This document shows, in pieces, positions 11,838-30,684 of a stretch of DNA of 64,000 bases. The translations under genes were made by a program, and so were the position numbers. The stretch spans positions 33,528 to 97,527 of the forward strand of contig JBKQOX010000026.1 of assembly GCA_052145255.1 (NCBI GenBank). Reading direction: 5' to 3'. Source of the stretch: Terracidiphilus sp. (GTDB lineage Bacteria; Acidobacteriota; Terriglobia; Terriglobales; Acidobacteriaceae). Each line of letters begins with the position of its first letter. Position 1 is the first letter of the stretch. A model generated the notes under the pieces. The model was given only the letters and a program-made list of their open reading frames with translations. It ran no database searches and was not told the DNA's origin.

Positions 11838-11890
11838 CGGAACGAAAGACCTCCTTTTCGCGATGCTATCGCAACAAGTTTCAGGCCGTC

Positions 11891-11932: not shown

Positions 11933-11946
11933 TCTTCGCTTCAGCC

Positions 11947-12603: not shown

Positions 12604-13194
12604 CTAGCCATCGTACTTGTCTGCCGCGCCCGCGAGCCCTTCGCTTTTCTAATCCCAGGTCGTTATTCCCCGGTCTCTGTCTTCCCCCGCCCACCCATTT
12701 TCCGAGGAATAAAGTACGCGGCGAAGCCGCGATCAAATCTTCAGCCCAATTCATCGGCCGTCATCCTGCGCACCCAAATCATCGGCGCCACGACGAGCGA
12801 ATGGCTCTCGACAGAGCCGACAGTCCCTCCCGCCATCCAGCGTTTCTTGGGCCGCGAGCACCCTGGGCAAGGCTGCGGAGCTGCCGGGATCGACGGGCGC
12901 GGGGTCGCCGAAAACGGCCGAGCGGCCCGAGAAACCTTGCCACAAGCCGACTTTTCGTTACCTATTGGCGCGAACTTCAGATGAAGGACAATGGCCCCAC
13001 CAAACCCGCGTTTCGAATCTATCGCCGCGTTGAGTGATTCACAATGTGCGGATTCGGAAATAGAGATCATTTTGCCTGAGCCGGGTGGGAGAACGCTCCG
13101 CAGCTGATGAGGCGAAACGCGCCTCAACGAGTCCAGTAGCGAGGGACCGGATATACCATAATGGAAATACCAGATTAGATCGGCTGGATCAACT

Positions 13195-14418: not shown

Positions 14419-14551
14419 CGCGCCGTTCTTGCAACTCAGTTATCCTTCTGTGATTGGGAATTGCGGAGTGGGACACAGGATGCTGTCCCCGCGAGGAACG
14501 GCGCGATTCGGGCTATGGATCGGATATCGCGGAAATCAAGGAGTGTTGATC

Positions 14552-15292: not shown

Positions 15293-16440
15293 AATTCAGC
15301 AAACTCATTCTCGCCAATCTGCTTCGCAAGAAGGCACGGCTGGTTCTCACCATCGGTTCGTTCGCTGTGGCGCTTTTCCTGTTTGCGCTGCTGGGAGTGG
15401 TGAACGACGCCTTCAGCCGCGGGGCAGACGTCGTGAGCGCGAATCGCCTCGTCACCATCAATCGCACGTCAATCATCAACACGGTACCGTTGTCCTACCG
15501 GGACGAAATCCTGCGCATTCCGGGCGTGACGTACGTGACACACGACAATTGGTTCGGCGGCGTGTATCAGGATGCTAAGAATTTCTTCCCTCAATTTGTG
15601 ATCGATCCGGAGAACCAGCGCCAGGTTTACCCAGAGCTCATCGTTCCCGACGATCAGTGGGATACATTCCTGAAAGATCGCCAGGGCGCGATTGTCGGCG
15701 CGGTTACCATGAAGCGCTTCGGCTGGAAGGTCGGCGACCGCATTCCCATCACGACAACTATCTATGGGCTGGCTGGCAAGCCCTTCGAGTTCAATATCGA
15801 TGGCGTTTACCACGGCGCGAAGCCCGAAGATGACGAGACCCAGTTTTGGTTCCAGTGGGAATACTTCAAAGAGAGCGTGCCCGATTCGATCAAAGGCCAG
15901 GTTGGTTGGTACACGGTTCGCATCGCTGACCCCGACGACGCCCCGCGTATCGCCAAGACCATCGACAACATGTACATGAATTCGCCCTACGAAACGAAGA
16001 CCGAGACAGAGTCCGCGTTTGCCGAGGGCTGGGTGAAGCAGTTCGGAAATATCAAATTCCTGATCGTTTCGATCGGGACCGTCGTTTTCTTCACGCTCTT
16101 GCTGGTTACCGGAAACACGATGGCCATCTCCGTGCGCGAGCGAACGAATGAGCTGGGCGTGCTCAAGGCTATCGGTTTTCCGGATGGCACGATCCTTGCG
16201 TTCATTCTGGGCGAGTCGATGGCGATCGCGCTTGCCGGTTGCGTGGGCTTGCTGCTTGCGCTGGTCGTCATTCCGGTGCTAAGCCGCGCAATGGCCGGTC
16301 TCTTGCCGCCGCTTCTGGTTACGGCCAAAACGTTGGTGTTCGGTGTGATCGCTGCTCTCATGGTCGGCTTCGCCAGCGGAATTCTTCCCGCCTACGGTGC
16401 GATGCGCATGCGTGTAGTGAATGCCCTTCGGAGGGTGTGA
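15289..16440 (+). CDS. MacB/FtsX-type ABC permease 1
   Basis: ATGA overlap with the ATPase gene; TM1, large periplasmic domain, ISVRERTNELGVLKAIGF, ASGILPAY. Confidence 0.9.
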   Translation: MKFSKLILANLLRKKARLVLTIGSFAVALFLFALLGVVNDAFSRGADVVSANRLVTINRTSIINTVPLSYRDEILRIPGVTYVTHDNWFGGVYQDAKNFFPQFVIDPENQRQVYPELIVPDDQWDTFLKDRQGAIVGAVTMKRFGWKVGDRIPITTTIYGLAGKPFEFNIDGVYHGAKPEDDETQFWFQWEYFKESVPDSIKGQVGWYTVRIADPDDAPRIAKTIDNMYMNSPYETKTETESAFAEGWVKQFGNIKFLIVSIGTVVFFTLLLVTGNTMAISVRERTNELGVLKAIGFPDGTILAFILGESMAIALAGCVGLLLALVVIPVLSRAMAGLLPPLLVTAKTLVFGVIAALMVGFASGILPAYGAMRMRVVNALRRV

Positions 16441-16442
16441 GC

Positions 16443-17729
16443 ATGGTGACAAAACTCTTTTTCGGCGCGGTGATCACCCTTGCGGCCATCGCTGCGCTGC
16501 TCCTGATTTTGGTCATCGTTGGCGGGATCGTGGCCGGATTGCTGGCGCCGCTGATCGGTTCCGTACCGATTTCCTACAACCTCCGCAGCATTCGGGCACG
16601 CTGGACTTCCACGATCGTGGCCATTCTGGGCATTGCCGGGACGGTCGGCGTATTCGTGGCCATGCTTTCGCTGGCGCGCGGTTTCCGGGCCACGCTGGTG
16701 GCCTCAGGCACGCCCGACGATGCGCTGGTGATGCGGGCCGGCTCGACCACGGAAATGATGGGCGGCATCACTCTCGATTCTGTGAAGCTGGTACAAGATA
16801 AGCCTGGCGTGGCACGCGATGCGTCGGGGCAGCCGCTGGTCACGCAGGAAGTCGTCGGCGTCGTTCCCATACCACTGATCAGCACAGGCACGGACGCGAA
16901 TGTGGAAGTCCGCGGCGTTTCGCCCAACGTCCTCGAAATCCGCCAATTCGTGAAGGTCGTGCAAGGGCGGATGTTTCATTCTGGGCTGGACGAGCTTGTG
17001 GTGGGCAAGAATGCCTCGAAAACCTACGAGGGCCTGACCGTTGGCAACACGGTGAACTTCGGCGGCGGGCACTGGAAGGTTGTAGGAGTGTTCGACGCGG
17101 GCGGATCGTCGTTCGATTCCGAAGTGTGGTGCGACTCGCGCATCCTGAACGAAGTGCTCAAGCGCCCCGAAAACATCTTTCAATCTGCCACTGTTCACCT
17201 CACTTCGCCCGCGGCATTCGACAAATTCAAGGATTCGATTACTTCCGACCCGCAGTTGAATTTGGAAGTCGAGCGCGAAGTGGATTACTACGCCAAGCAA
17301 TCCTCGGCCATGACGCAGCTGATCACCGTGTTGGGCGGTCTGGTGGCTGCCGTCATGGCGATCGGCGCCGTATTTGGCGCTCTCAACACCATGTACTCGG
17401 CCGTCTCCGAACGCGGACGTGAGATTGCCACCATGCGCGCGCTCGGCTTTTCCAGCTGGAACGTCATCCTCTCGTTCTTGTTCGAGGCGCTGCTGATTTC
17501 TTTCATAGCCGGCATTATCGGCTGTGTGGTCGTGCTTCCGCTGAATGGCATGACCACGCAGACCATGAATTTCTCGACCTTCTCGAACATTGCCTTCGCC
17601 TTCAAGATCACATTCAACTTGCTTGTGATGGGGGTGATATTCGCGCTGGCTATGGGCGTTCTCGGCGGCATGCTGCCCGCAGTGCGCGCCGCGCTGCGCC
17701 CTGTCGCCGTCGCCCTGCGCGAGTTGTAG
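16443..17729 (+). CDS. MacB/FtsX-type ABC permease 2
   Basis: ATG 16443; NTMYSAVSERGREIATMRALGF, GGMLPAVRAA; extra N-terminal TM. Confidence 0.9.
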   Translation: MVTKLFFGAVITLAAIAALLLILVIVGGIVAGLLAPLIGSVPISYNLRSIRARWTSTIVAILGIAGTVGVFVAMLSLARGFRATLVASGTPDDALVMRAGSTTEMMGGITLDSVKLVQDKPGVARDASGQPLVTQEVVGVVPIPLISTGTDANVEVRGVSPNVLEIRQFVKVVQGRMFHSGLDELVVGKNASKTYEGLTVGNTVNFGGGHWKVVGVFDAGGSSFDSEVWCDSRILNEVLKRPENIFQSATVHLTSPAAFDKFKDSITSDPQLNLEVEREVDYYAKQSSAMTQLITVLGGLVAAVMAIGAVFGALNTMYSAVSERGREIATMRALGFSSWNVILSFLFEALLISFIAGIIGCVVVLPLNGMTTQTMNFSTFSNIAFAFKITFNLLVMGVIFALAMGVLGGMLPAVRAALRPVAVALREL

Positions 17730-18173
17730 GGAACCTGTGACGAAGGCACAGTGATACATAGCAAACCATAATTGGAATCAATGACCATTTTCCGTAGCTA
17801 ATTACAGGCGTCGGATCTGGCGTGGTCATTGAGCAGGTCTTAGGGTGCAACGATTAGTCCTCGAAAACGCCGATATCGCCCGCAAAAGCCCTCCGACCGA
17901 CCCCTTCTCGTCGCCCGCGCAAGCCCCTCCCGGCCGGCGATCCATCCCAACCCCGCTGCGCCTGCCTTTCTGTCAAGCTCTCAATCGCCCAAACGCGCCC
18001 ATCAAACTCACCCTAACCGCTTGCCTTTTCGGTCACTTATTGACTCCCAAATCTTCCTCCCCAAGTTTGCCGATCATTATGCCCGTTTGGCGCACAATAA
18101 TCCCATGATCGCTATTCCGAGAATCGTTGGCTCCCGGCTTTTCGCAGAAACGCGATCAAGGAGGAAACTTAAT

Positions 18174-18311
18174 TTAAGAAAAAATTTGGGATGTTTCGCC
18201 TGATTTTCGCCAAATAACTCGTTTAGAATCAGCGGGCGTATTCCGAAAATGGGCTGAAAATGAGCGCACTTAAGTCGAATCTATGTGCCATAACCCGTTT
18301 AGAATCAGCAA
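18174..18311 (+). repeat. AT-rich dispersed element, copy A, with two ATAACYCGTTTAGAATCAGC cores 76 bp apart
   Basis: 18174-18233 is 57/60 identical to the reverse complement of 29879-29938; cores at 18214-18233 and 18290-18309. Confidence 0.85.
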
Positions 18312-18809
18312 GAATATCCCAAGAAATGACGGACGGTTTTAAGAACCGCAAGCAACTCTCCTGAAAGGAGTTATTGGCCAACGCGGGCTATGCTGTCTGC
18401 TGTCTCCAGCTTGCTGTCTGAAGCCCGCTCTCCGCTATTCACTTTTCACTGTCCACTGTCTTAAAAACAGTGTGCCTCACCCGTTATGTCCCCCGACTCC
18501 CGAGTGAGGCACTTAGTTGTCCCAGGTCTCTAAATCGGAGTCTCCTCCCCCCGAAGCAGACTCCGACTTTTCGAGCCGCCCGACTACTACGGCCTTTTAC
18601 CTCTGCATCACGAATTCGGCTCCTCGTACCACCTGCCCGTGAAGCATTGGGACAACGGTCCCGGCATTCTCCCGCCGATCTTGCAATTGCTGCAGGCGAT
18701 GCATTGTAGGAGACGATGGAGGTCGAAGCTTTGTTGCAAAATCGGCGCGACAAAATCAGAGACATCAACGCAGGCATTCGCTGTTAAGGCAAGAAAAAAT
18801 CCGCATCAG

Positions 18810-18842
18810 GGAGCAACGGCCGCGCGCAGCGGCCATCGCTCC
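18810..18842 (-). terminator. Hairpin after degP, possible terminator
   Basis: Minus strand GGAGCGATGGCCG...CGGCCGTTGCTCC; the T-tract lies about 10 nt downstream of the stem. Confidence 0.45.
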
Positions 18843-18870
18843 TCCAATGCCGATCGTTACTCGCCGAACC

Positions 18871-20430
18871 TCACTCGCCGTTTTGCGAATTCTGATTTGG
18901 GTGCACCACGAGGAAGCTCTCGCCACCGTTCGCCCAAACCAGAAGCAGGACGTCTTTCCCTACAGGCTCCGAGTGAAGCTGGTTCACGAAGCTGTCCGCA
19001 TCCTCGACGGGATGACGGTCGACTCCGAGAATCACATCGCCGGGTGTGAGACCCGCATCTTCAGCCGCGCTGCCCGGACGCACTGATTCGATCACCGCGC
19101 CCTTCACCTGATCGGGCACGTTGAACTGCTGGCGCAGATCGGGAGTCAGGTTGGCCACGGCCAGTCCAAGACGGCCGCGCTGCTGGCTGCCCTGTTCGCC
19201 GTTGCTCGCCTCTTCATTCGTGTTGTGGAACTCGCCCACTGTCACGTGCAGCGTTTGCGGCTTGCCGTCACGAAGAATGCCCAGTGTGATCGCGGTCCCT
19301 GGCGTCATCTCGCTCACCGTAACCTGCAGCATGCTGCCGTTCGGAATCCCCTTGCCGTCAACCTCGCGCAGCACGTCGCCGCTCTCTAAGCCAGCTTTGC
19401 TGGCCGGCGAGTCCGGTGTCACCTGGCTGACGATGGCGCCTGTCGCATCGGGCAGGTTGAAGAAGCTCGAGTTGTCGGGCGTCACATCGTTCATGCTGAT
19501 GCCCAGGTAGCCGTGGTGCACGCTGCCGTTCTTGATGATGGCCTGCGCCGTGGCCTGGGCGATTTGCGACGGAATCGCGAATCCCGCGCCGGCAAACGAT
19601 CCGCTGCCCGAGATGATGAAGGTGTTGATGCCAATGACTTCGCCGTAAGCATTCACCAGCGGCCCGCCGGAGTTACCGGGATTGATGGCCGCATCGGTCT
19701 GGATAAAGGCGCCCGGCTTGCGCGGATCGTCGCGGTAAGGATTCGGGCGATCGAGGCCGCTGATGATGCCGCGCGTCACGGTAAAGGGGAAGTTGCCGAA
19801 GGGGTTGCCGAAGGCCAGCACGGTCTCGCCCGGCTTGATTTTCGTCGAGTCGCCCCACGGCACGCTGGTCAGGTCGTGCGCGTCGATTTTGATCACCGCC
19901 AGGTCGTTGAGTTTGTCGACACCGATCAATTTCGCGGTGAAGACGCGTCGGTCATTCAATGTGACGCGAATCTGCGTCGCCCCGTCGACCACATGATCGT
20001 TGGTGACGATGTATCCATCTGACGTTAGAATCACGCCACTACCGATGCCATGTTCGAACTGGGGCTGCGGTTTCATCTGCTGGCCGCCGGGACCGAAGAA
20101 GAACTGACGAAAGCCGGGAGGCAAATCCTGCGGATTGATTCCGCCGGGTCCCTGCCCGCCGTTCTCGGAGTTCTGATCGTCCTCGGAAACGCGCGAAGTG
20201 ACGGCCACGTTGACGACTGCGGGCGTGACGCGCGCGGCAACGGCTTCCACCGCGTTATCGAGCGCGACCAGCGACGAGACGCTGCTCTCATCGAGCGGCC
20301 CGGCGACAGCGGCGTGCGCTCTGCTGTGATCGAAAAAGAACGCAAGCGAAAACAGAACGGTGGCGAGGATACCAGCGGGAACTGCGAGCTTCTTGACGAT
20401 TGCTACTAATGAATTAGTTGTCAAAGACAT
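18871..20430 (-). CDS. DegP/DegQ (HtrA, Do family) serine protease with two PDZ domains
   Basis: Start MSLTT at 20430 after GGAGA; GSGVIL, VTNDHV, DLAVIK, QTDAAINPGNSGGPL, two PDZ domains. Confidence 0.93.
   Translation of the reverse strand: MSLTTNSLVAIVKKLAVPAGILATVLFSLAFFFDHSRAHAAVAGPLDESSVSSLVALDNAVEAVAARVTPAVVNVAVTSRVSEDDQNSENGGQGPGGINPQDLPPGFRQFFFGPGGQQMKPQPQFEHGIGSGVILTSDGYIVTNDHVVDGATQIRVTLNDRRVFTAKLIGVDKLNDLAVIKIDAHDLTSVPWGDSTKIKPGETVLAFGNPFGNFPFTVTRGIISGLDRPNPYRDDPRKPGAFIQTDAAINPGNSGGPLVNAYGEVIGINTFIISGSGSFAGAGFAIPSQIAQATAQAIIKNGSVHHGYLGISMNDVTPDNSSFFNLPDATGAIVSQVTPDSPASKAGLESGDVLREVDGKGIPNGSMLQVTVSEMTPGTAITLGILRDGKPQTLHVTVGEFHNTNEEASNGEQGSQQRGRLGLAVANLTPDLRQQFNVPDQVKGAVIESVRPGSAAEDAGLTPGDVILGVDRHPVEDADSFVNQLHSEPVGKDVLLLVWANGGESFLVVHPNQNSQNGE
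20405..20418. promoter_or_regulatory. Putative BlaI-family operator inside the first codons of degP
   Basis: ACTAA-TGAA-TTAGT, matching the palindrome upstream of blaI. Confidence 0.55.
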
Positions 20431-20461
20431 TGCTTCATCTCCATGGGTGTGAATTGCATGT

Positions 20462-22165
20462 TTAGAGTTGGAAGAACAGCCAGCCGCCATCGAATGCAGA
20501 TGCGGTTGGCCGATGGGAATGTGAACCTGTTGTTCGCGCAGACTTAGTGTCCGTGGTCGCGCCCGTCGGAGATCCTGTCATGGTGTTTGCCGGATACACA
20601 AGCAGAATCAGGTGCGTGACGGAAATCTGCGCGACCGGGGACGTGTTGCGCTTGCTGGTTGCGTCGTCGCTTTGTATTTGCGCGTCAGCGCCGGTTTCAT
20701 AGTCGGCGACTTCTCTGGACGTTGTTGCAGAAGATTGCGGTGCAGACGTCTCCACTTCTTCCCAGGCTGTGAGAACAATAAATTCCTGACCTTGCGTGGA
20801 AACCGCCGCCGGCGTGGAGGCTGCTGCATTCACCATCACCTGGTGTGGCGTAGCCTTACGATCTGTCATCGCCGTCTCAGCTGTCTCGTTGCTGCGGGGT
20901 GACCGAGCAGCAACGGGCGGCCCTGCCGCGCTGCGCGTTGCAGGAACAATAGACTTCGTCTCAATTGCGCGGTAATCCCTGGAAGGATGGAATACTGCAT
21001 TGGCGCCCGTCGGGCCTGGCTCACTCATTCGATCATCGGAAATCCGCGCGAGACGCGGAGCATCGGTCTGCTGCGGCGCGAGATCGGCCATCTGCGCGTC
21101 GGGCTTCGGCGCGGCAACAAACGCGACCAACTGCGGGCTGCGCGACAGTTCAACCGCTCCAACAAGCAAGCCGCATCCAACCATACCGACCAGCGCCCCC
21201 GCCGCCAGCGGATGGAGCGCCCGCCTGCGCCGAAGGATGCTGTCGACGCGGTGAACCAGTTCCGGCCGGCGTTCGAATACGCCCAGCGAAAGCGCCTGCG
21301 CACGGCGCAAAAACTCCCGCCGCTCGAATTCGCGGCGTTGCAGTCCGCGCTCTGCAAGGGCAGTCAGGCAGGCCGCATAGGTGCGCGGAGCCTGCGTCCT
21401 CTGAACCACTCCTTCGTCGCAGGCCATCTCGCGCTCGCGGCACAGGCGCCGCTCCATCCACGCCAGCGCCGGATTCAATGGAAATAGCACGAGAGCAAGT
21501 TTCTGCAGCAGATTCGTCCAGTCATCACGCCGACGCAGATGTTCGGCTTCATGCAAAATCACTTGTTGAAGCTCGCCCGGAGTCAGCCGCGAATAGAGCC
21601 ACTCGGGAATGAGTATCCGCGGCGCAAAAAAGCCAATAACGCTCGGCCGGTCAAGGTCGGGCGTGGTGCAAATCCCGATGGGCCGCCCAGGCAATCCCGC
21701 AAGCAGCGAGTGAAGATTCCCGTCCATTTCGATAGGGGTTGCGCCGCGCCACAGTCTGCGCAGCCGCAACAAATGAAAAACCAGCTCTGCAGCACGAAGT
21801 GTTGAAGCAGCCAACCACAAAGCGGCGATGGCGAATCCCCATCGGCTGTCCAGCTGGAGCCAGGGCCTTGCTGTTACTCCACCGGCCTGCGTAGCGGCGA
21901 TCACAGTGCCGGAATGCTCGAGAAATGGCAAGAACGGCAACAGAGCCGCAACTGCAAATCCCGCTGCCCAAGCCGCAAAGCGATGCGCAGCGGAGATGCG
22001 GAGCACGAGTCGCAGGCAAAGGACCAACGCAAGCGCAACCAGCGCGTCCTGCCAAAGCGCCGCCACAGCCGCCGGTGCCGCAGCGTGCGCAAAACCAGCG
22101 AATGCCGCTCTCACCGATTCAGCGAGACCCGCCAAAACCGAATCCGCTATCTGCATCAAGGGCAT
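20462..22165 (-). CDS. BlaR1/MecR1-like M56 metallopeptidase without a penicillin-binding sensor domain
   Basis: TM helices, PSVIGFFAPRILIP, ILHEAEHLRRRDD, FPLNP, EMACDE; low-complexity Ala/Thr/Ser/Pro-rich C-terminus. Confidence 0.88.
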   Translation of the reverse strand: MPLMQIADSVLAGLAESVRAAFAGFAHAAAPAAVAALWQDALVALALVLCLRLVLRISAAHRFAAWAAGFAVAALLPFLPFLEHSGTVIAATQAGGVTARPWLQLDSRWGFAIAALWLAASTLRAAELVFHLLRLRRLWRGATPIEMDGNLHSLLAGLPGRPIGICTTPDLDRPSVIGFFAPRILIPEWLYSRLTPGELQQVILHEAEHLRRRDDWTNLLQKLALVLFPLNPALAWMERRLCREREMACDEGVVQRTQAPRTYAACLTALAERGLQRREFERREFLRRAQALSLGVFERRPELVHRVDSILRRRRALHPLAAGALVGMVGCGLLVGAVELSRSPQLVAFVAAPKPDAQMADLAPQQTDAPRLARISDDRMSEPGPTGANAVFHPSRDYRAIETKSIVPATRSAAGPPVAARSPRSNETAETAMTDRKATPHQVMVNAAASTPAAVSTQGQEFIVLTAWEEVETSAPQSSATTSREVADYETGADAQIQSDDATSKRNTSPVAQISVTHLILLVYPANTMTGSPTGATTDTKSARTTGSHSHRPTASAFDGGWLFFQL

Positions 22166-22167
22166 GA

Positions 22168-22599
22168 TTATCTCTCGCCTCGCGCCTTACCGGGCGCCGC
22201 GTTCCGGATCGCTTCTTTATCGGGCGACGCGCTGCGAATCGCGTCGCGCAGTCGGTCCAGCTCCTCGGTGGAGATTTCCTTATCGCCCAGCAGGCTTAAC
22301 AGCAGCTTCTCGCGCGAGTTGCCAAAGAAGCGATTCATCACGTTGCGCACCTCTGAGCGGCCCGCCTCGTTTTCTTTGACGCATGGCCAGTAAACAAAGG
22401 CCCGCCCTTCCTGGCGATGTTCGACGTAACCCTTTTGCTCCAGGATTCGGATGGTGGTGAGCACAGAATTGTAGGCCAGTTGTTCGCCTTCCGGCAGGGC
22501 TTCAACCAGGTCGGTAACGGCCGACTCGCCGCGCCGCCAGAGGATCTTCATCAGCCTCAGCTCGGCTTCGGTCAACGTATTGGATTTTCTTGGCGGCAT
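22168..22599 (-). CDS. BlaI/MecI/CopY family repressor
   Basis: LTEAELRLMKILW, LAYNSVLTTIRILEQKGYV, FFGNSREKLLLSLL. Confidence 0.93.
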   Translation of the reverse strand: MPPRKSNTLTEAELRLMKILWRRGESAVTDLVEALPEGEQLAYNSVLTTIRILEQKGYVEHRQEGRAFVYWPCVKENEAGRSEVRNVMNRFFGNSREKLLLSLLGDKEISTEELDRLRDAIRSASPDKEAIRNAAPGKARGER

Positions 22600-22668
22600 C
22601 GCTAAGCGACTGATCCTAATAGATGAATCTCTTCCATCCCTGTGTCTTCGTCCGTCTTATAGACGAAC

Positions 22669-22684
22669 AACTAAAGGATTAGTT
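22669..22684. promoter_or_regulatory. Putative BlaI-family operator upstream of blaI
   Basis: AACTAA-AGGA-TTAGTT perfect 6-4-6 palindrome; a minus-strand TATAAG -10-like box lies at 22657-22662. Confidence 0.7.
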
Positions 22685-22923
22685 ACCAGAAATGCCGAGA
22701 TTTTTCAAGAGCCCGCGGCGACCCGTTCATTCTCCGCGCAAACCGCCCTCTCGAAATCTCTGCCCTGTGCTACGATCCGTGCAAGCGTTCACGCAATCGC
22801 TTTCTTGCACGAAAATTCTGGACTGAGCCGTTGGTTTCTTCCGGCGCGATCACCCGCGAGGACCGTCCAAAAAACGGCGCGTTACCGGCACAATGAACGC
22901 GTCGCAGGCGCATAGAGGATGAC

Positions 22924-23907
22924 ATGAACACCCAGCTCAGGCCGATGACCCTTGGCGAGATTCTTGACCGGACCGCCGAACTCTACCGAACTCACTTCCT
23001 GCTTTTTGCCGGGATCTCTTCCATCTTCGCCGTGATCATGCTCGCCGTGCAGCTTTTGTATCTGCGCTCGCTCGTCCTGCTCGGATATCCCAACTTGATG
23101 GCGCATTGGCAATGGGGAACGGCCTCGGTCGCCATGGTTGAAGCACTCGTCGTCCTGATGCTGGCCGGGCTGTCGATCGCCGCCAACAATCGGGCAGTTG
23201 CGTGGGTGTACCTGGACAAGCCTGCGACGATTCGTGCCGCTGCCAAAAGCGTCGTGCCCCGCCTGCGAACCTATTTGTGGCTTATGACGATCACCGCATT
23301 CCGCGCGTGGGCGCCCTTCGCCGCGCTTTACGTTGCTTTCATTGGCATCGCATTTGCGGTCCTTCCTCACGGCTTGATCACGAATCCAACGGCGGTGCAG
23401 GGCGCGGCTCAGCAAATCCCTGGCGCCATCATGGCTGCGGGCATCGGCATGCTCGTTCTCATGCCGTTTTTTGCATTGGCTTTCGTGTATGGAGTGTGGA
23501 TGACGCTTCGCTATTCGCTCGCAGTGCCCGCTTGCGTCGTGGAAGATTTGCCGGCGACCCCTGCAATCAAGCGCAGCATTTCACTTAGCGAAGGCTCGCG
23601 CGGGCGGATCTTCGTCCTCGGCCTCCTGGTGTATGCGGTGCGTACGGTGCTGGGGATTCTGTTCGGTTTCCCCATGATCGCTCTTGCTTTAAAACATCCC
23701 GGCCAGCCGCTCCCTCTGCTCTGGATGGTTGTGGCTCAAATCGGCAGCTTCGTGACCAGCGCATTGATCGGCCCCATCTACTCCACCGGCCTCACGCTCT
23801 TTTATTACGACCAGCGCATTCGCAAGGAAGGCTTCGACATCGAGTGGATGATGCAGGCCGCGGGACTCTCACCGCAAACCGAGTTGCCGGCGCCGCAAAA
23901 TTCCTGA
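22924..23907 (+). CDS. Multi-TM membrane protein, paralogue 1 (MoxR-cluster associated)
   Basis: LRPMTLGEILDRTAELYR, several TMs, YYDQRIRKEGFDIEWMMQ. Confidence 0.85.
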   Translation: MNTQLRPMTLGEILDRTAELYRTHFLLFAGISSIFAVIMLAVQLLYLRSLVLLGYPNLMAHWQWGTASVAMVEALVVLMLAGLSIAANNRAVAWVYLDKPATIRAAAKSVVPRLRTYLWLMTITAFRAWAPFAALYVAFIGIAFAVLPHGLITNPTAVQGAAQQIPGAIMAAGIGMLVLMPFFALAFVYGVWMTLRYSLAVPACVVEDLPATPAIKRSISLSEGSRGRIFVLGLLVYAVRTVLGILFGFPMIALALKHPGQPLPLLWMVVAQIGSFVTSALIGPIYSTGLTLFYYDQRIRKEGFDIEWMMQAAGLSPQTELPAPQNS

Positions 23908-23923
23908 GCCAGCGAGGATTCTC

Positions 23924-24949
23924 ATGAGCGAGACATTTCGACCCTCTACACTCGGGGAGATTCTCGATCGCACGGCGCAGATTTATCGCCGCAACTTCTG
24001 GCTCTTTGCCGGCGTGGCGGCTTTGCCCATCGGCGCGATCTTCGCTCTCACGGCGATTGGAGGTGCTTTATTCGGGGCCGCAACAGTGGCATTCAGGGCC
24101 AGCAACCTGGCCAATCCTGCTGCCATCGCACTCGTCGTTCTGATCGTTTTGATCGCAGCGCCGGTCTACATTGCAGCGGCCGTTTTCTCCTCCGCAGGGC
24201 TCACAGAGGCGGCAGCGAGCACGAGTCGCGACGAAAAGATCACCATCCGCGGCGCGTTCAAGAAGGTGACGCCGCGGTTCTGGCGCTACCTGTGGCTCAT
24301 CATTCTGCAGGGGATTGTAGTGGGTCTGATCCCGGCGGCGATTGCGGGCGCCGTGATCGGAGTTCTGCTATTTGTTGGAACGCTTGCCGGAGCAGGCACC
24401 TCCACCGCCATCGCCGTGGGATTTCTCGTCTTTATCGTTGTGGTCGCGGCGGTGGTCGTCATCATCGAGCTTGTGTTGGGTTATTCGATCAGCCTCCCCG
24501 TGTGTGTCCTGGAGAAAAAGCCAGCGTGGGATTCGCTCAAGCGCGGATGGAGTTTAAGCAAGGGCACGCGCGGGCGCATCTTCGTCATGTTTCTGCTGGT
24601 CATGGCACTGGCCATGGCCGTGTCGATGATCTCGGCAATTCCATCCATGATCATCATCTTCACTTCCGCGGCCGGCGGATCTCAGCCCGCCACTGGATCG
24701 GTTGCATTTATCGTGGCTGAAATTACAAGAGCCGTCCTGGATCTCGTTCTTCAGGTCGCGCTCGCGCCCATCTCCGCGATTGCGCTTGTGCTCTTCTATT
24801 ACGACCAGCGCATCCGCAAGGAAGGTTTCGATATTGAGTGGATGATGCAGCAGGCCGGGCTTACGCCGACCGCATCCCAGGCGCCGACGGCGCCAGCCCT
24901 GGGTATTTCCGGGCCGGTTGCGCCCCCTGATACCGTGGAAGAACCATGA
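23924..24949 (+). CDS. Multi-TM membrane protein, paralogue 2
   Basis: FRPSTLGEILDRTAQIYR, YYDQRIRKEGFDIEWMMQ; same terminal motifs as the previous gene. Confidence 0.85.
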   Translation: MSETFRPSTLGEILDRTAQIYRRNFWLFAGVAALPIGAIFALTAIGGALFGAATVAFRASNLANPAAIALVVLIVLIAAPVYIAAAVFSSAGLTEAAASTSRDEKITIRGAFKKVTPRFWRYLWLIILQGIVVGLIPAAIAGAVIGVLLFVGTLAGAGTSTAIAVGFLVFIVVVAAVVVIIELVLGYSISLPVCVLEKKPAWDSLKRGWSLSKGTRGRIFVMFLLVMALAMAVSMISAIPSMIIIFTSAAGGSQPATGSVAFIVAEITRAVLDLVLQVALAPISAIALVLFYYDQRIRKEGFDIEWMMQQAGLTPTASQAPTAPALGISGPVAPPDTVEEP

Positions 24950-26064
24950 ATCTGGGGTGCCCGAGATCAGGTTGGCGCCACGCCGCAGCACGTTCGGTGG
25001 TAGCTCTCGCGCTGCTCGTCCCACTCGCTGCCGGGCTAATCTCTGCGCGCGCCCAGGAGCCTACTGCCGAACCCGGCTGGCGCAGTGCGACCGTCGCCGA
25101 ATACCAGCAGCACCTCAAGGATCTCGACGCGATTGTCGCCGCATGCCAGAAGCAGCGGTCCGGGGCGGCCGCGGCACAGTCCATTTTTCCGGCGTGCAAT
25201 CCGGCGCAAATCGGTCCCGATGATCGCGTCCAAGGTTTCGCCGCTGCGCCTTCGCAGACGCGCGAGGTGCGATACGACTGGCTGCGCTCCGTTCTCACGC
25301 GTGCCGCGAAAAAGGACGGTGCAACGCAGAAGACGATTTTCGGCGCAATTCCCCACCCCAACAACAAACCGGTCTCACTTGATTCGCTGCTGGCCGTATC
25401 GCGCCAGCGCCTTCAGGACGACGCAGCGCAAGCGGGAGCGCCACCTGCGTCGACTCCAAACTTCAGCGACGAGCGAAAATCCCTGAACACCATCCTCTCG
25501 CAACGCGCGTATCAAGGCGTCACGCAAGTGTCGACCATGGATCGCCTTCGCGAATGGTTTGACAACCTGCTCGACAGATTTTTCTCGGGGCTGGTGCGCT
25601 TTGGATCGCACGCGCCGTGGATCGTGTGGCTGCTGCGCATCCTGCTGCTCGTGGCCATTTGCACAGCGCTGGTCTGGTTTCTCCTGCGTATCGAGCGGCG
25701 CTCGCGTCTCCGCGTGGTTCCCGAAATCGAGCCCGCGCCTGGCGCGCCTTCTGCGCGCGAATGGCAACTGTGGCTCCGCGATGCTCAAGATATGGCTGCG
25801 CGTGGCCAGTGGCGCGAGGCTATTCACTTCATTTATTGGGCAGCGATCGCGCGTTTGGAGTCGAAGCGAATGTGGCCGGCTGATCGCGCACGCACTCCAC
25901 GCGAGTATCTCGCCCTGCTGGCTGGAACCGACCCGCGCAAAACCAATCTCACAGCCCTCACGCGGAGTTTCGAGCGCACCTGGTACGGCGGCCGCACGGC
26001 CCAGGCTTCCGACTTCAACGCCGCTCTGGAACAGGCCGCGGCACTGGGGGTCGCGACGGAATGA
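24946..26064 (+). CDS. DUF4129 domain protein
   Basis: Signal peptide, one TM, C-terminal WREAIHFIYWAAIARLE...RARTPREY...LTRSFERTWYG. Confidence 0.85.
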   Translation: MNLGCPRSGWRHAAARSVVALALLVPLAAGLISARAQEPTAEPGWRSATVAEYQQHLKDLDAIVAACQKQRSGAAAAQSIFPACNPAQIGPDDRVQGFAAAPSQTREVRYDWLRSVLTRAAKKDGATQKTIFGAIPHPNNKPVSLDSLLAVSRQRLQDDAAQAGAPPASTPNFSDERKSLNTILSQRAYQGVTQVSTMDRLREWFDNLLDRFFSGLVRFGSHAPWIVWLLRILLLVAICTALVWFLLRIERRSRLRVVPEIEPAPGAPSAREWQLWLRDAQDMAARGQWREAIHFIYWAAIARLESKRMWPADRARTPREYLALLAGTDPRKTNLTALTRSFERTWYGGRTAQASDFNAALEQAAALGVATE

Positions 26065-27254
26065 AGCTCTTCCCCTCACTCGACGCGAAGGACCGCAGGC
26101 TGCTCACCGGTTGCATGATCGCGGTAATCGTTCTCGCATTTGTGACCGCATTCCTGTCGCGCAACGAAAACGACGACAACAATACCGTGCCAAGCTCCTA
26201 CCTGACTGGCAAGCACGGCGCGCGCGCAGCCTACGAATTGCTGCAGGCAAGCGGATACAACGTGCAGCGATGGGAGCAACCGTTGAGCGATCTGGCCGAA
26301 CGCGCCGACGGCCAGACGGTCGTCATCTTCGCCGAGCCTGACCAGGGTGACGTCGCGGCGGAAGATCTGAAGGCGGTGCGGGACATCGTCGCCAGGGGCG
26401 GCCGCATCTTGGTCACGGGATGGTCGGGCGGAATGATTGCGCCCGACGGCAACGCCCAGCCGCCGACGCAGTTTCAAGTCGCGTGCAAGCTTACTCCGCA
26501 GGGACTCGATCCGCTTGCCGGCGCCGGCGAAGTGTGGATGGTTCCTGAAGCCAGTTGGGGATTCGACCACCCGCTCGATCGGGTGCAATACAACTGCGCG
26601 GGCACTCCGGCAGTCGTGGAGTACTCCGAAGGCAAAGGCGGGGTGATTTGGTGGGCAAGCTCCACACCCATTGAAAACAGCACCATCAGCCGCGCCGACA
26701 ACCTGAACCTCTTTCTGAACGCGCTTGGCGCCCGCGAAGAGCACAGGATCTACTGGGATGAGTCGCTGCACGGCGAAACTCGCACGGAGTGGTTCTACGC
26801 CAGCGGACCGGCAATCTGGCTTTTGCGAGGTGCGCTTGTCGCGATCGGGCTGCTGATTCTCTTCAGCTTCAGCCGGCGCCGCGGGCCGGTGCGCGACCTG
26901 CCGGCCCCGGTGCGCGCTTCTCCAGTCGAATTCCTTGAGGCGCTGGGCTCGCTCTACGCGGAGGCGCGGGCCTCAGCCACTGCGGTTGAGCTCGCTTTTG
27001 AGCGCTTCCGCCGCCGCATGGGCGATCTGTGCGGACTAAAGGGCGCAAAGATGAGTGCGGAGGAGTTGGCGAAGGCGTTGCGCCGACGCTTCCCGCAGGC
27101 CTCACCGGAGCTGGAGAAAGATCTGGCCGATTGCGAGGTGGCCGCGACGAACGATAAGCTGCCGCCCAAAAGCGCGCTGGCGCTGGTGCAGGCGCTGAAC
27201 CGGCATAGCGAGTTGCTGACCGCCGCGGCGCGTGCGGGCCCGGCGCATCGATAA
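26061..27254 (+). CDS. DUF4350 domain protein
   Basis: N-terminal TM, PSSY..GKHGARAAYELL, IYWDESLHG, second TM, RRRGPVR, VEFLEALGSLY. Confidence 0.85.
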   Translation: MKLFPSLDAKDRRLLTGCMIAVIVLAFVTAFLSRNENDDNNTVPSSYLTGKHGARAAYELLQASGYNVQRWEQPLSDLAERADGQTVVIFAEPDQGDVAAEDLKAVRDIVARGGRILVTGWSGGMIAPDGNAQPPTQFQVACKLTPQGLDPLAGAGEVWMVPEASWGFDHPLDRVQYNCAGTPAVVEYSEGKGGVIWWASSTPIENSTISRADNLNLFLNALGAREEHRIYWDESLHGETRTEWFYASGPAIWLLRGALVAIGLLILFSFSRRRGPVRDLPAPVRASPVEFLEALGSLYAEARASATAVELAFERFRRRMGDLCGLKGAKMSAEELAKALRRRFPQASPELEKDLADCEVAATNDKLPPKSALALVQALNRHSELLTAAARAGPAHR

Positions 27255-27323
27255 AGGTGAATCGGGGAAAATGGAACGTGCCCGAAAGATCAAAAGATCG
27301 AAGCAGAAAGCAAGGAGACGGGA

Positions 27324-28325
27324 ATGACCGAGGAAACGAATCTGGGACAGGGCTCGCAATTGACGAGCGCGGCGCTGCCGGCGACGCAGCAGCTTCTCGC
27401 CGCCTCGCGCTCGGAACTGGGGCGCGTGATCGCGGGACAAAGCGAAGTGATCGGCGAGGTTCTGGTCGCTGTATTGACGCAGGGTCACGCGCTGCTTGAA
27501 GGCGTGCCGGGCATTGCGAAAACGCTCATCGTCAAGTCGGTCGGCCGCCTGCTTGGCCTCGGCTTCCAGCGCGTGCAGGGCACGCCGGACCTGATGCCGG
27601 CCGACATTCTGGGCACCACAATGTTTCGGCCGGGCACCGACACCTTCACCTTCCACGCCGGCCCGGTCTTCACCGACCTGCTCCTGGTGGACGAGATCAA
27701 CCGAATGCCTCCGCGCACGCAGGCCGCGCTGCTTGAATGTATGGAAGAGCGGCAAGTGACAAGCGACGGCGTGCAGCGCCCACTTCCGCCATGGTTCACC
27801 GTCTTCGCCACTGAAAATCCCATCGACTTTGAAGGCACCTATCCACTGCCCGAGGCGCAGCTTGATCGCTTTCTGCTCAAAATCAAAGTGGGCTACCCGC
27901 CTCCGGACGACGAACGGCTGATGCTCGAGCGCCATCACGGCGCGGCCCAGGGAAACCTGCTCGAAAATGCGAAGATTCAGCCGCTTCCTGCCCAGCTTCT
28001 CGCTTCCGCGCGCGATGAGATTCGCGCCATCCGTGTGGAGAACGATCTTTACGGCTACATTCTCGATCTCGTTCGCCGCACGCGCGAGTGGCCCATGCTG
28101 GCGCTCGGAGCCAGCCCCCGTGCCGCGATCTGCCTGCTGCGCGTGGCGCAGGCATTCGCGGCCTTTGAAGACCGCGATTACATCATTCCCGACGACGTGA
28201 AGCGCGCCGTTCTGCCTGTCCTGCGCCATCGCATTATCCTCAAGCCGGAGGCGGAGCTTGAGGGCTTCGATCCAGACCGAGTCCTCAACGACGTTGTAGC
28301 CGCGGTTGCGGTGCCGCGAGGATGA
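27324..28325 (+). CDS. MoxR family AAA+ ATPase
   Basis: LLEGVPGIAKT, DLMPADILG, LLVDEINRMPPRTQAALLECMEERQVT, ATENPIDFEGTYPLPEAQLDRF, GASPRA. Confidence 0.95.
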   Translation: MTEETNLGQGSQLTSAALPATQQLLAASRSELGRVIAGQSEVIGEVLVAVLTQGHALLEGVPGIAKTLIVKSVGRLLGLGFQRVQGTPDLMPADILGTTMFRPGTDTFTFHAGPVFTDLLLVDEINRMPPRTQAALLECMEERQVTSDGVQRPLPPWFTVFATENPIDFEGTYPLPEAQLDRFLLKIKVGYPPPDDERLMLERHHGAAQGNLLENAKIQPLPAQLLASARDEIRAIRVENDLYGYILDLVRRTREWPMLALGASPRAAICLLRVAQAFAAFEDRDYIIPDDVKRAVLPVLRHRIILKPEAELEGFDPDRVLNDVVAAVAVPRG

Positions 28326-29722
28326 TTTCATCGTCCCTCCATCCCGAGCCGGTTCGCGCCGCTTGCAAGCCGCGCGGCCGCTTTGCGTTTGGCCTAACAT
28401 CGCGCACGATCTGGCTGCTTGTCGCTGGCCTTCTGCTCGCGCTGCCGGGATTCTTCCGGCCTACGTGGGGATACGGCATGCTCGTCTGGGATGCGCTGGT
28501 GCTGCTCGCGGTTCTTCTCGACGGATTGCGATTGCCGCTCGCGCACGAGATCACGATCGAGCGCTCCTGGAGCAACGTGCCTTCGCTCGACAGTGAAACC
28601 GAAATCCAACTTGCCGTCGAGCACAGCGCAGAGACAATACTCGAGTGCCACCTGGTTGATGACTTGCCCGACGCATTGGTCGCCGCGCCCGCCACGCGCT
28701 TCCTGCGCGCATTTCCCCGCGTGCGCGCCGCGCTCCGTTACAAAATCAGGCCGCGCGAGCGCGGCGATGTTCGCGCCGGCCAAGTCTACGTTCGCTATGC
28801 TTCGCCGCTCGGGCTGGTGGAGCGCTGGGCCATGGCCCCGCTCGAGCAGCCGGTGCGCGTCTATCCGGCGCTGCGCCAGGGCGAGGATCAGGAGATCTTT
28901 CTCGCTCGCGGCCGCCAGATCGATCTTCAGCTACGGCGCGCGCGCGAGCGCGGACTGGGCCGCGACTTCGAGAGCCTCCGCGAATATCTCGAAGGCGACG
29001 ATCTGCGCGATGTCTGCTGGACAGCGACCGCACGCCGCGGCCAGTTGATCACACGCCGCTACCAGACCGAGCGCAGCCAGGCAGTATGGATCGTACTCGA
29101 CGCCGGCAGATTGCTGCGCGGCAGAATCCTCAGCGACGACGAAACGGAACGCCGTGGCCATTCCAAACTCGACTACGCGTGCTCCACCGCCGTGGCGCTT
29201 GCGCAACTGGCGCTTTTCTCCGGCGATCGCGTAGGCCTCCTTGTCTATGGACAGCATGTGCAGCAGCGAGTGCTTCCCGGCCGCGGCCACGCGCATCTGC
29301 GACAAATTGTTGAAGCGCTCGCGCAGGCGCGCGCCGAATTGAGCGAAGCTGATCATCTGCGCGCAACAGCAACGCTGAATCGCTGGCAGCCGCGCCGCGC
29401 GCTCATTCTCTGGATCACGGATCTCGCAGAAACCGCCATGCGCCCTGAAGTCATCGACGGCGCCATGCAGTTGCTGCATCGCCACGTGCTGCTTTTTGTC
29501 GCCATGGCCCAGCCCGACGTCGTTGCCATCGCCAACGCGCGACCGAAGAATGTCGAAGAAATGTTCCGCGCATCAGCAGCTCAAGAATTGACCACGCGGC
29601 GCGAATTGCTGCTCGCGCGCCTGCGCGACCAGGGCGCGCTCACCCTCGATCTCGATCCCGCGCTGCTCACATCGGCCGTGCTGAATCAGTATCTGAAGGT
29701 GAAAGAGCGGGCTATGGTGTAA
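28322..29722 (+). CDS. DUF58 domain protein (VWA-related MoxR partner) with N-terminal TMs
   Basis: DFESLREYLEGDDLRDVCWTATARRG, VLDAGR, GDRVGL; ATGA overlap with moxR. Confidence 0.9.
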   Translation: MISSSLHPEPVRAACKPRGRFAFGLTSRTIWLLVAGLLLALPGFFRPTWGYGMLVWDALVLLAVLLDGLRLPLAHEITIERSWSNVPSLDSETEIQLAVEHSAETILECHLVDDLPDALVAAPATRFLRAFPRVRAALRYKIRPRERGDVRAGQVYVRYASPLGLVERWAMAPLEQPVRVYPALRQGEDQEIFLARGRQIDLQLRRARERGLGRDFESLREYLEGDDLRDVCWTATARRGQLITRRYQTERSQAVWIVLDAGRLLRGRILSDDETERRGHSKLDYACSTAVALAQLALFSGDRVGLLVYGQHVQQRVLPGRGHAHLRQIVEALAQARAELSEADHLRATATLNRWQPRRALILWITDLAETAMRPEVIDGAMQLLHRHVLLFVAMAQPDVVAIANARPKNVEEMFRASAAQELTTRRELLLARLRDQGALTLDLDPALLTSAVLNQYLKVKERAMV

Positions 29723-29800
29723 GCGCGATTTTCCGATCCAAACTGTCTGAAATGAGGAAGATCCGAGCCTTTCCGCGCGGGTGCATAATTGCGCTAATCA

Positions 29801-29938
29801 TTGCTCATTCTAAAGGGGTTATTGGCCATCAATTCGACGTAATTTGCGGTCATTTTTCGATGTTTCTACGATCTGTTTGCTGATTCTAAACGAGTTATAT
29901 GGCGAAAAACAGGCGAAACATCCAAAATTTTTTCTTAA
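29801..29938 (-). repeat. AT-rich dispersed element, copy B (inverted relative to copy A)
   Basis: Cores at 29879-29898 and 29803-29822, also 76 bp apart. Confidence 0.85.
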
Positions 29939-30249
29939 TTTATTTTTTGCACTCGAGAAAGACAGCGGAGTTAGCTGGGCGAGCGGAGCTTGCTCGCGCC
30001 CCGGCGCGACTGCCGATTCGGAATGTTTCGGATGAATCCCCATACAAGATCAAGTGTAGAGATTTGGCGGAAATAATCGGCAAACTTCGCGAATTTTTTT
30101 TGCGCGTGTTTTCAGCGGATTGCGAAGGAGATCGCGAAGAGAGGCCTTGACAGCCGGGGAACCTGATCTTTCTGGATGGCGGGGCCGGACTGCGAACGGC
30201 TGAATTACATCTACTGATGGGAATGGCAGTTCATTGACCCAAGTTGAAA

Positions 30250-30684
30250 TCAATGTTGATTGCTTGTCTGTTCAATTCCATATTGTATTGCTGCTTTAAG
30301 TACTTCGATTTTGATATCTGCGAGTGTTTTGAATTTGATGCAATACCCCGTGACGCTTGCTTTGCCGAGTTCCTTCCCAAATGTCCGGGCCAGGTACTTC
30401 TTGTCATTCACTCCCATAATGTAGACCGAAATGCCTGTTGTATTCGCACTGATACCGATTTGATAGAACTCCCTGGTTTTTCCATTGGCGGATTGAAGGT
30501 TTTGAGATCCATATCCAATGTTTGGGTTGGAAACGATTTTTCCTTTCTCGTCTTTTCCATCCAAGAACCACAATTTACATGTTGGCATCAACGCCAAAAT
30601 CATGGCTTGCAAATGCTGCATTTCGCTACGTTTTGGTTCCGGTTGAGTGGCAATATACTCCTTGATTTGTTTCTGCAAGTTCAT
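30250..30684 (-). CDS. DUF1801 family protein, AT-rich
   Basis: KLWFLDGKDEKGKIVSNPNIGYG, FYQIGISANTTGISVY, GKASVTGYCIKFK; about 40-42% GC in two 60-nt lines counted; AAGGAG SD. Confidence 0.85.
   Translation of the reverse strand: MNLQKQIKEYIATQPEPKRSEMQHLQAMILALMPTCKLWFLDGKDEKGKIVSNPNIGYGSQNLQSANGKTREFYQIGISANTTGISVYIMGVNDKKYLARTFGKELGKASVTGYCIKFKTLADIKIEVLKAAIQYGIEQTSNQH

Follow-up and report, generated by a model that had tools for sequence, protein, structure and literature searches.

What is the AT-rich repeat that stands twice, in inverted orientation, between convergent genes of a Terracidiphilus genome, and what might it do there? The two copies, A and B, lie in a 64,000-nucleotide stretch of DNA (the window; G000:C26:33528-97527) from G000, a 4.28-Mb Terracidiphilus metagenome-assembled genome (MAG) of 67 contigs. 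A first-pass annotation had described each copy as a ~140-bp element with two cores exactly 76 bp apart, and had offered a protein-binding array, a recombinase site, a non-autonomous mobile element or a small RNA (sRNA) locus as explanations. Acidobacteria are among the most abundant soil bacteria; we know of almost nothing on their promoters, small RNAs and genome repeats, and a full-text literature search returned no description of such elements in Acidobacteria.

Our answer is that both copies are members of a dispersed family of ~500-bp cassettes, and that such a cassette may be (at a probability of roughly 0.45) a self-contained small transcription unit, the ribosome-free and unstructured tail of which would present a 17-nt word, TAACYCNTTTRGAATCA, to a hypothetical factor. 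This reading is drawn from a promoter-like head, an open frame with little constraint on its peptide, a block of stop codons in all three frames, and a conserved, G-poor, unstructured tail of fixed geometry. Comparisons were made with 40 related genomes (G numbers), among them that of the sister species G011, whose flanking DNA is ~90% identical to that of G000; loci of other organisms have L numbers. Genes were called with a home-made codon-usage caller, and the counts of tail types (A to D) are approximate.

The two window copies and their relatives

The resemblance between the two copies was as first described: 29879-29938, once reverse-complemented, agrees with 18174-18233 at 57 of 60 nt, and cores of the form ATAACYCSTTTAGAATSAGC start at + strand positions 18214 and 18290 and at - strand positions 29803 and 29879, 76 bp apart from start to start in both copies, with none expected in 100 shuffles. 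The partial inverted core of copy A (18364-18375, complementary to 18213-18224 at 92%), the shared upstream block AAGTTTGCCGAT (18063-18074, + strand; 30087-30076, - strand) and the pair of TTTCGCC boxes in copy A (18194 and 18205, 11 bp apart) were likewise recovered, and copy B holds the same pair (29918 and 29907). The ~140-bp element is real but was drawn too small, being merely the tail of the ~500-bp cassette: the conserved stretch extends over ~17971-18458 in copy A and ~30152-29730 in copy B.

Rather than a coincidence of two copies, the element forms a dispersed family: G000 has ~24 copies and G011 at least 20, and further ones are present in MAGs of other Acidobacteriaceae. The 76-bp geometry is kept across it: among 45 copies with a type A tail (G000, G011 and other assemblies) the core spacing is 76 bp in 38, 75 or 77 bp in five and 68 bp in two. 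A blastn search with the 171-bp core region gave 18 matches in G000, and G011 was the sole positive among the 40 relatives (at least 20 matches). The 17-mer TAACYCNTTTRGAATCA was also found four times in G014, twice in G002 and once each in G009, G019, G020 and G039, the reversed control being zero everywhere. When one genome per species was scanned for the word, ~45 of the 80 matches listed were from Acidobacteriota; these Acidobacteriota matches were from Acidobacteriaceae, Terracidiphilus, Acidoferrum, Bryobacterales and Solibacteraceae, and complete type A tails were present at 10 or more of the Acidobacteriota loci with the word. In distant Terriglobia the word (…CTTTAGAATCAACACTTAC) occurs two to four times per locus, direct and inverted, and often ends in a G-rich stretch, GGGGGAGGGG.

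Four tail types, each with a GAATCA word, alternate behind the head module P (type A, ~24 copies; B, ~7; C, 5; D, ~5), and P lies upstream of the tail and is co-directed with it in ~23 of 24 copies. A gene for a ~150-amino acid (aa) CxH..C..C..H protein, here CxH, follows types C and D. These type C and D cassettes (C30:186626, C17:1547, C31:21293, C16:36252, C64:65515 and C65:20338) end in Shine-Dalgarno (SD)-like G-rich stretches, GGGGGGAGTCGGGGTGCC or CCCCAAAA.GGGGGTGGGGGG, and the protein encoded behind them has ~150-227 aa, an N-terminal C.H..C..PA..C.Y.H motif, an acidic tail and at most a weak match to DUF5763. At C30:186626, C16:36252 and C65:20338 the type C cassette has a leaderless MN(P/Q)NP... 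frame of 34-39 codons, which ends ..TSLQxAAL exactly at the TAG within the core word CTCTTTAGAATCA.

Every cassette copy in G000 is intergenic. The convergent flanks noted earlier hold for both window copies (copy A between a MacB/FtsX permease gene, 16239-17729, +, and degP, 18871-20490, -; copy B between a DUF58 gene, 28322-29722, +, and a DUF1801 gene, 30250-30684, -) but are not a family trait, since all four neighbour orientations occur in G000 (7, 5, 5 and 4 copies); neither a link to convergent genes nor one to a single downstream gene family was found in the G000 copies. Plasmid and phage collections and Rfam gave no match to the element and no transposase lies beside any copy, which agrees with the view that it is not a known insertion sequence (IS) end; no IS-end collection was searched. 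An iteron or a parC/parS-like centromere was rejected on the strength of the ~24 chromosomal loci with unrelated neighbours and the lack of plasmid or phage matches, and a replication-polar word of the Chi or KOPS kind was rejected given an orientation relative to local GC skew of 10:13 and window copies that are inverted within 12 kb.

Contigs start or stop inside type A copies (C6:1-520, C58:37049-end, C61:1-270, C40:1-110 and C43:1-110; the copies at C6:480, C40:38 and C43:38 are among them), and the repeats thus fragment the MAG assembly. The core word was also seen 5-40 nt from tRNA 3' ends or a tRNA 3' fragment (G000:C62:28051; L052, in G019; L062); tRNA 3' ends are the kind of place where integrative elements sit.

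Organization of the cassette

Alignment of the flanks of ~24 G000 copies gives the cassette a length of 450-550 bp. Its parts are, in order, TGTCAAG, ~85 bp, module P, a short open reading frame (ORF), an AT-rich block, TTTGGGATG, the TTTCGCC pair, core 1, a spacer and core 2. The 5' start has the consensus TGTCAAG(c)CCC, followed by the ~85 bp, and at orthologous sites the homology between G000 and G011 flanks ends at or within 4-30 nt of TGTCAAG. This heptamer occupies 17971-17977 (+) in copy A, where the TTGACA of its reverse complement faces outward, and 30146-30152 (-) in copy B.

Module P has the consensus (c)cAAGTTTGCCGATyATTTCC.. with one of two endings, GGCGCATAMT...CCATGA or TCTCTACACTTG..ATG, and is laid out as AAGTTTGCCGAT, ~19 bp and a -10-like box, with an ATG 6-10 nt beyond the box. 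In copy A (18063-18107, +) the box is CACAAT at 18093-18098 and the ATG follows at 18105, 6 nt past it, which is a leaderless geometry; in copy B (30041-30087, -) the box is TACACT at 30058-30053 and the ATG lies at 30043-30041.

Between P and the AT block is a variable region of 60-400 bp. The micro-ORF of copy A, MIAIPRIVGSRLFAETRSRRKLNLRKNLGCFA, has 32 codons (18105-18203, +), crosses a variant AT block and stops at a TGA between the TTTCGCC boxes. The open frame of copy B, MGIHPKHSESAVAP.. (29819-30043, -), also passes a variant AT block; its orthologue in G011 is open too, with a ratio of non-synonymous to synonymous differences (pN/pS) of ~1. The family consensus of the AT block, AAAATAATTAAATAAAAAA, has stop codons in all three frames, and the block of copy A reads CTTAATTTAAGAAAAAA (18168-18184, +). 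After it come TTTGGGATG and TTTCGCC-N4-TTTTCGCC, at 18185-18211 (+) in copy A; in copy B the AT block (29948-29928), TTTTGGATG and the two boxes together take up 29901-29948 (-).

Both cores carry the 17-nt word. Core 1 of copy A, ATAACTCGTTTAGAATCAGC (18214-18233, +), includes TAACYCNTTTRGAATCA; core 2 of the same copy, ATAACCCGTTTAGAATCAGC (18290-18309, +), and both cores of copy B (core 1, 29879-29898, -; core 2, ATAACCCCTTTAGAATGAGC, 29803-29822, -) are matches to the pattern. The spacer between the cores is 57 nt in the family (..TCGAAAATG.GC..AATT.CGTCGAATTTATG..); that of copy A (..CGAAAATG..AATT.CGTCGAAT.TATG.., 18234-18289, +) is conserved in length and partly in sequence.

Behind core 2 one 3' variant reads GCTCATTTGCA.CC.GTGC..TTCAC.CCTTAACT..CTCATT and then passes into short tandem repeats; the other, present in copy A, at G000:C27:140080 and at G000:C2:16544, has a third, inverted core, AAAGGAGTTA. 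The 3' part of copy A (18310-18458, +) holds the inverted partial core AAAGGAGTTATT at 18364-18375 and the tandem repeats TGCTGTCT.. and CACTGTCCACTGT, and homology to the sister species restarts at 18459, right after it. Copy B has a short 3' part (29730-29802, -) which runs right up to the stop of the convergent DUF58 gene at 29722. The whole tail measures ~230 bp and is AT-rich with more C than G, the composition of the P strand being A 28, C 25, G 18 and T 30%. Short tandem repeats (TGCTGTCT, CACTGTCCACTGT, GTCCCTAC and TCACT) border most cassettes on both sides, for instance at 18390-18460 of the window and at G000:C22:75740-75830.

The head of the cassette, the micro-ORF and orfX

The block AAGTTTGCCGAT was counted 36 times in G000, 33 times in G011 and 0-7 times in other relatives, against 0 for the reversed control, and ~45 instances show the full context of P. 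The module also stands ahead of real genes that begin with an SD sequence or a leaderless ATG, namely orfX, a phage-type lysozyme gene, an HTH_3 gene and a DUF2089 gene, and on that account it is a plausible promoter. The lysozyme (PF00959) and HTH_3 genes headed by P are at G000:C30:102861 and C13:27000, and they hint at a use of P in common with genes of prophage-like elements or islands. A promoter for tRNA or another stable RNA was rejected, no tRNA lying within 1.5 kb of any P module.

In full-length cassettes P and the AT block enclose orfX, a hypothetical gene of 129-148 aa. G000 has three paralogues of 135-148 aa, and at G000:C22 the variable region is an intact orfX with its stop codon inside the AT block. 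The family comprises 107 protein clusters, all 'hypothetical' and one of them from Terracidiphilus; neither orfX nor CxH matched a family in Pfam, PHROGs or NCBIfam. At L221, in another organism with an orfX that is 77% identical, the whole succession of P, orfX, AT block and type A tail is conserved, and more distant orthologues (L222 and L223), apparently at the same locus flanked by a major facilitator superfamily (MFS) gene, have a single core. Some short copies retain the first ~15 and the last ~6 codons of orfX in frame up to the stop (e.g. MAFKTIPTITAVGAPRSSPAKRKNN and MASTTIPTIHAAGAPANAAAKRKK), and a deletion intermediate, MAFKTIPTITAVGAP..KRKNN followed by a stop, was also found. Because the codons of both orfX ends persist in frame, the short cassettes are, as judged from their sequences, internally deleted derivatives of the orfX cassette.

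In 23 of 26 type A copies the frame left behind is uninterrupted between its start, at most 28 nt from the -10 box, and the AT block; with shuffled bodies it was open in 13.9 +/- 2.1, and the maximum in 500 shuffles was 21. It starts with ATG, 6-23 nt past the box, in 20 of the 26. Between orthologous micro-ORFs pN/pS is 0.56-1.0, and for orfX itself it is 0.54. From the open-frame count and these ratios together we infer that the frame is kept open and that its peptide is barely constrained. A small protein on the reverse strand (..VDSKGV.GHK..) was rejected for its in-frame stops in ~7 of 20 copies. The mini-ORF MFRLIFAK, which would begin at the ATG of TTTGGGATG and end at the core 1 TAA, was also set aside, having no codon pattern in its variable positions and lacking its ATG in some copies; this stretch is read as a DNA or RNA motif.

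Structure, conservation and possible transcription of the tail

RNAalifold returned a consensus energy of 0.00 on both strands for 35 copies. The z-scores of single-sequence folds ranged from -1.6 to +1.35 on the + strand (mean ~+0.5) and were ~zero on the - strand, and five of six + strand copies folded worse than their own shuffles; with no consensus fold and z-scores around zero or positive, the structured sRNA that had been among the first suggestions was not borne out. Rfam gave no match at the gathering threshold and no tRNA in the window, a permissive scan of copy A returned noise (E = 8.5), and in 18 related loci the matches were RNase P and a tRNA alone, with nothing at the element.

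The tail is conserved in its sequence. Between orthologous copies identity is 86% in the AT block, 85% in the region of TTTGGG and the TTTCGCC boxes, 91% in core 1, 77% in the spacer and 81% in core 2, compared with 50% in the variable part, and the contrast between the 85-91% of the conserved blocks and this 50% argues for purifying selection on the tail.

Put together as a transcription unit, these parts would work as follows. P would fire a short, often leaderless transcript; ribosomes would translate the micro-ORF and be released at the stop block; the tail would consequently stay single-stranded and ribosome-free; and its two phased words, with the TTTCGCC pair, would form a docking platform for a trans-acting factor, whether a protein or another RNA. 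In that case its role would be that of a small regulatory RNA or a 3'-tail module, and not that of a protein-coding gene or the end of a mobile element.

No RNA sequencing run that holds this organism's element was found. Related sequence is present in three wetland or peat metatranscriptomes: contigs of 150-520 nt (depth 3-18) include AT-block, core 1 and spacer sequence from several distinct copies, and one contig, 393 nt long and 94% identical (depth 2.6), reaches from P as far as core 2 in the C40 copy.

Several points weigh against a transcription unit. The TTGCCG-like and -10-like boxes of P are ~19 bp apart, a simple sigma-70 scan found neither promoter nor terminator in either window copy, and the terminator scan of both copies thus supplies nothing to define the 3' end of an RNA. 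In the open-frame count the copies of G000 and G011 are not independent, so that the effective sample is smaller than the 26 copies, and the 'stop block' may simply follow from the abundance of stops in any AT-rich sequence. The metatranscriptome contigs are directionless and of low depth and attest presence in RNA libraries, not a defined transcript; some include the P motif and DNA upstream of it and may reflect DNA carry-over or read-through. The docking partner is hypothetical. Finally, the word in both orientations in other Terriglobia and the 11-bp phasing of the TTTCGCC boxes fit double-stranded DNA at least as well.

A separate observation concerns the DNA next to copy A, where an abundant RNA of ~240 nt maps immediately downstream of degP (window 18459-18698, - strand reading), with a metatranscriptome depth of 68-90 compared with 3-6 over the degP coding region. 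It ends at a - strand hairpin and T-run (GTGCCTCAC..GTGAGGCAC ACTGTTTTT, ~18463-18510), is conserved in G011, has no Rfam match and is a candidate sRNA derived from the 3' untranslated region of degP/htrA.

Readings of the tail at the DNA level

Beside an unstructured RNA tail, the protein-binding array proposed in the first-pass annotation also stays in play, as the main rival and a possible though less likely reading. Here the cores, the 11-bp-phased TTTCGCC pair and a bendable AT block would form a DNA-level operator or docking array, bound by a cassette-associated protein (with orfX and CxH as candidates) that would control transcription from the cassette or through it. The distance between the cores stays at 76 bp even as the spacer sequence drifts, the heptamers are 11 bp apart, the word stands direct and inverted, two to four times per locus, in other Terriglobia, no RNA structure was found, and in the wider family the genes beside the word code for small proteins that are Cys/His-rich or uncharacterised. 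However, orfX and CxH match no DNA-binding family and no binder is predicted; orfX is lost and the CxH gene missing in most type A copies; and 76 bp amounts to 7.2 helical turns, which places the cores on different faces of the helix. Nor is the TTTCGCC-N4-TTTCGCC pair enriched outside the cassettes (89 occurrences, ~24 of which are the cassettes themselves, against 62 for the reversed control), and a response-regulator regulon was rejected on the same count. An integration host factor (IHF) site gave partial matches alone on inspection.

More doubtful is a broader proposal, that the word TAACYCNTTTRGAATCA is the recognition element of an undescribed system found throughout Terriglobia. The self-promoted cassettes, dozens per genome, would be one network of it, in which a lineage-specific factor, perhaps CxH or orfX, reads the word on RNA or DNA. 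In every cassette a micro-ORF that is translated but free in sequence would be coupled to a ribosome-free tail, and the cassettes would spread and exchange tails by a copy mechanism without transposase-type ends.

It is improbable that the tail is instead an activator-dependent promoter, with the TTTCGCC pair as a Pho-box-like site for a winged-helix regulator, core 1 as the -10 box, the AT block as an UP element and core 2 as a decayed duplicate, the whole making a portable regulated promoter for any gene downstream. Its layout is that of promoters controlled by PhoB/OmpR-type regulators, in which the Pho box has this geometry: two 7-bp direct repeats 4 bp apart (an 11-bp period) lie 12 bp upstream of TAGAAT, and core 1 holds TAGAAT in ~17 of 20 copies. 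The next downstream gene is co-oriented in 11 of 22 copies, and in G014 a single core forms part of TTGCAG-N17-TGGAAT with a ~95-nt hairpin-plus-terminator unit behind it. Unlike a Pho box, however, the pair has no regulon outside the cassettes and was not found at other promoters, and the position equivalent to -11 is polymorphic, being A in 33 (TTTAGAATCA) and G in 23 (TTTGGAATCA) of 56 words genome-wide, with G in most core 2 copies. No consistent -35 box lies 17 bp upstream of the word across Terriglobia, and the promoter scan was empty; the A/G at -11 and the missing -35 box also ruled out the word as a general sigma-70 -10 box, and a sigma-54 or extracytoplasmic function (ECF) sigma reading failed on inspection, with a spacing off by one and a polymorphic GG. 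Both window copies, moreover, face the 3' ends of convergent genes, and the co-oriented downstream genes are unrelated housekeeping genes (hypC, galM, coaD, holB and truA).

The ~95-nt unit behind the single core TTGCAG-N17-TGGAAT occurs in G014, another Terracidiphilus species (L045-L048), and at L076. A partly covarying hairpin (CCAAATC..GATTTGG) is combined in it with a terminator of little strength (CCGGA-aaaa-TCCGG-TTTTCGCC). In one instance an orfX homologue ends directly 5' of the unit, which looks like a small-RNA gene.

Inheritance and mobility of the cassettes

Fifteen type A sites of G011 were checked in G000: ~11 hold type A and three another tail, and none is empty. The three switched sites have type C at C16 and C30 and type B at C37, and at each of them the whole cassette differs from TGTCAAG onward. 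Between species, copies keep their positions by inheritance. G000 and G011 both carry a type A cassette at site B, in the same orientation. In G020 and G041 P is conserved at this site with a different tail, in which the two cores are 42 bp apart, and in more distant species the neighbours are different.

At site A no element was found downstream of degP in 20 other Terracidiphilus genomes. G011 lacks a 6.6-kb block of G000 (window 11887-18458) of which copy A is the right edge, and the difference between the species at site A is this block and not a clean insertion. Two MacB/FtsX-type permease genes lie in the block; no MacB orthologue was found in G011, G041 or G020. Between the window copies, the segment from degP to the DUF58 gene is syntenic in G020 and G041, therefore the inverted pair does not bound a mobile unit; the copies as ends of an 11.7-kb transposon were rejected for this synteny in two species that lack copy A. 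No inversion between copies A and B was seen.

A recombinase site or a currently mobile miniature inverted-repeat transposable element (MITE), both within the scope of the original suggestions, gained no support, as no terminal inverted repeats, empty sites or adjacent recombinase were found. A wider version, in which the cassette is a MITE-like non-autonomous element with ends recognised by a recombinase or transposase encoded elsewhere (possibly orfX) and with the cores as subterminal sites, is very improbable. It would account for many dispersed intergenic copies, for short copies produced by internal deletions in a gene-bearing cassette, the way MITEs arise from IS elements, for the outward-facing TTGACA at the 5' end, for different cassette types at the same site in sister species and for the position of copy A at the edge of a 6.6-kb strain-specific block. 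Against this, the two window cassettes share no terminal inverted repeats, the junctions aligned between G000 and G011 have no common 3' terminal motif matching TGTCAAG, and no target-site duplications were found at the junctions compared; all 15 of the sister-species sites are filled in G000, four species have a cassette at site B, no match of orfX to a transposase or recombinase family was found (Pfam, NCBIfam, PHROG), and the DNA between the inverted window copies is an ancestral block, syntenic in G020 and G041. Least probable of all is that the cassettes are functionless relics, decaying duplicates of P and orfX kept alike by gene conversion: internally deleted short copies, a variable part down to 50% identity and tail-type swaps suggestive of recombination among copies would fit, but block conservation of 85-91% in orthologues with strict conservation of length, a maintained open frame and the persistence of the 17-mer across Terriglobia orders are hard to explain without selection.

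Two cassettes of G000 have themselves been interrupted. At G000:C41:115438-118300 core 2 in a type A copy is broken by an IS66-family element (..cctttagaat|GTAAGCGTCCAGTG..). Three ORFs (124, 115 and 556 aa) and an end reading GTAAGCG.. belong to this element, and the insertion is missing in the sister species. A second IS, with inverted ends GGTAATTATCCC.., lies in the AT block/TTTGGG region of another copy (G000:C2:16559-19060) and splits its P (C2:19123) from its tail (C2:16544).

Comparison with known systems

With dozens of intergenic copies and interchangeable modules, the family is like the pneumococcal BOX elements (boxA-boxB(n)-boxC), the enterobacterial ERIC and the Neisseria Correia elements; in some families of this kind the repeats bear signals for promoters or protein binding, and transcription includes them together with adjacent genes. 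Its modularity is BOX-like in that P combines with tails A to D and the tail differs at orthologous sites. Unlike these families, the cassette lacks a hairpin or terminal inverted repeat, has its own promoter-like head and micro-ORF and derives from orfX, and its positions are stable between species while the tail type switches. An extragenic location, high copy number and frequent placement at gene 3' ends recall REP/BIME and REPINs, which RAYT transposases mobilise, and inverted word pairs in other Terriglobia (GTAAGTGTTGATTCTAAAG...CTTTAGAATCAACACTTAC) are reminiscent of palindromic units; the type A cores, in contrast, are two direct repeats, not palindromic and with no predicted fold.

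Closer in layout are the CcsR ('cuckoo') sRNAs of Rhodobacter, which have a promoter, a small ORF and tandem non-coding repeats with a pyrimidine-rich anti-SD-like motif; core 2 often reads ACTCCTTT or ACCCCTTT, a comparable pyrimidine-rich motif. The CcsR RNAs, however, have conserved hairpins with the motif in the loops, whereas the cassette has no conserved structure, its repeat units are ~60-78% alike and its transcription is putative. The type III toxin-antitoxin system ToxIN is made up of a promoter, tandem RNA repeats and then a gene; the cassette likewise has direct repeats of fixed period behind a promoter-like head, and in types C and D a hairpin and a small gene (CxH) come next. It differs in that the cassette has two diverged repeats with a 76-nt period, that a gene behind the tail is missing from most type A copies and that CxH is unrelated to ToxN/AbiQ.

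Significance of the family

For the biology of these bacteria the family offers several handles: a strongly conserved promoter-like head present ~45 times per genome, a possible leaderless micro-ORF design and a 17-nt word that extends across orders. The cassettes break MAG assemblies and are easily confused with sRNA genes or IS ends. Should they prove selfish, they would show that a small gene cassette can shrink and persist without transposon-type ends; if their tails dock a factor, they would amount to a lineage-specific regulatory layer.

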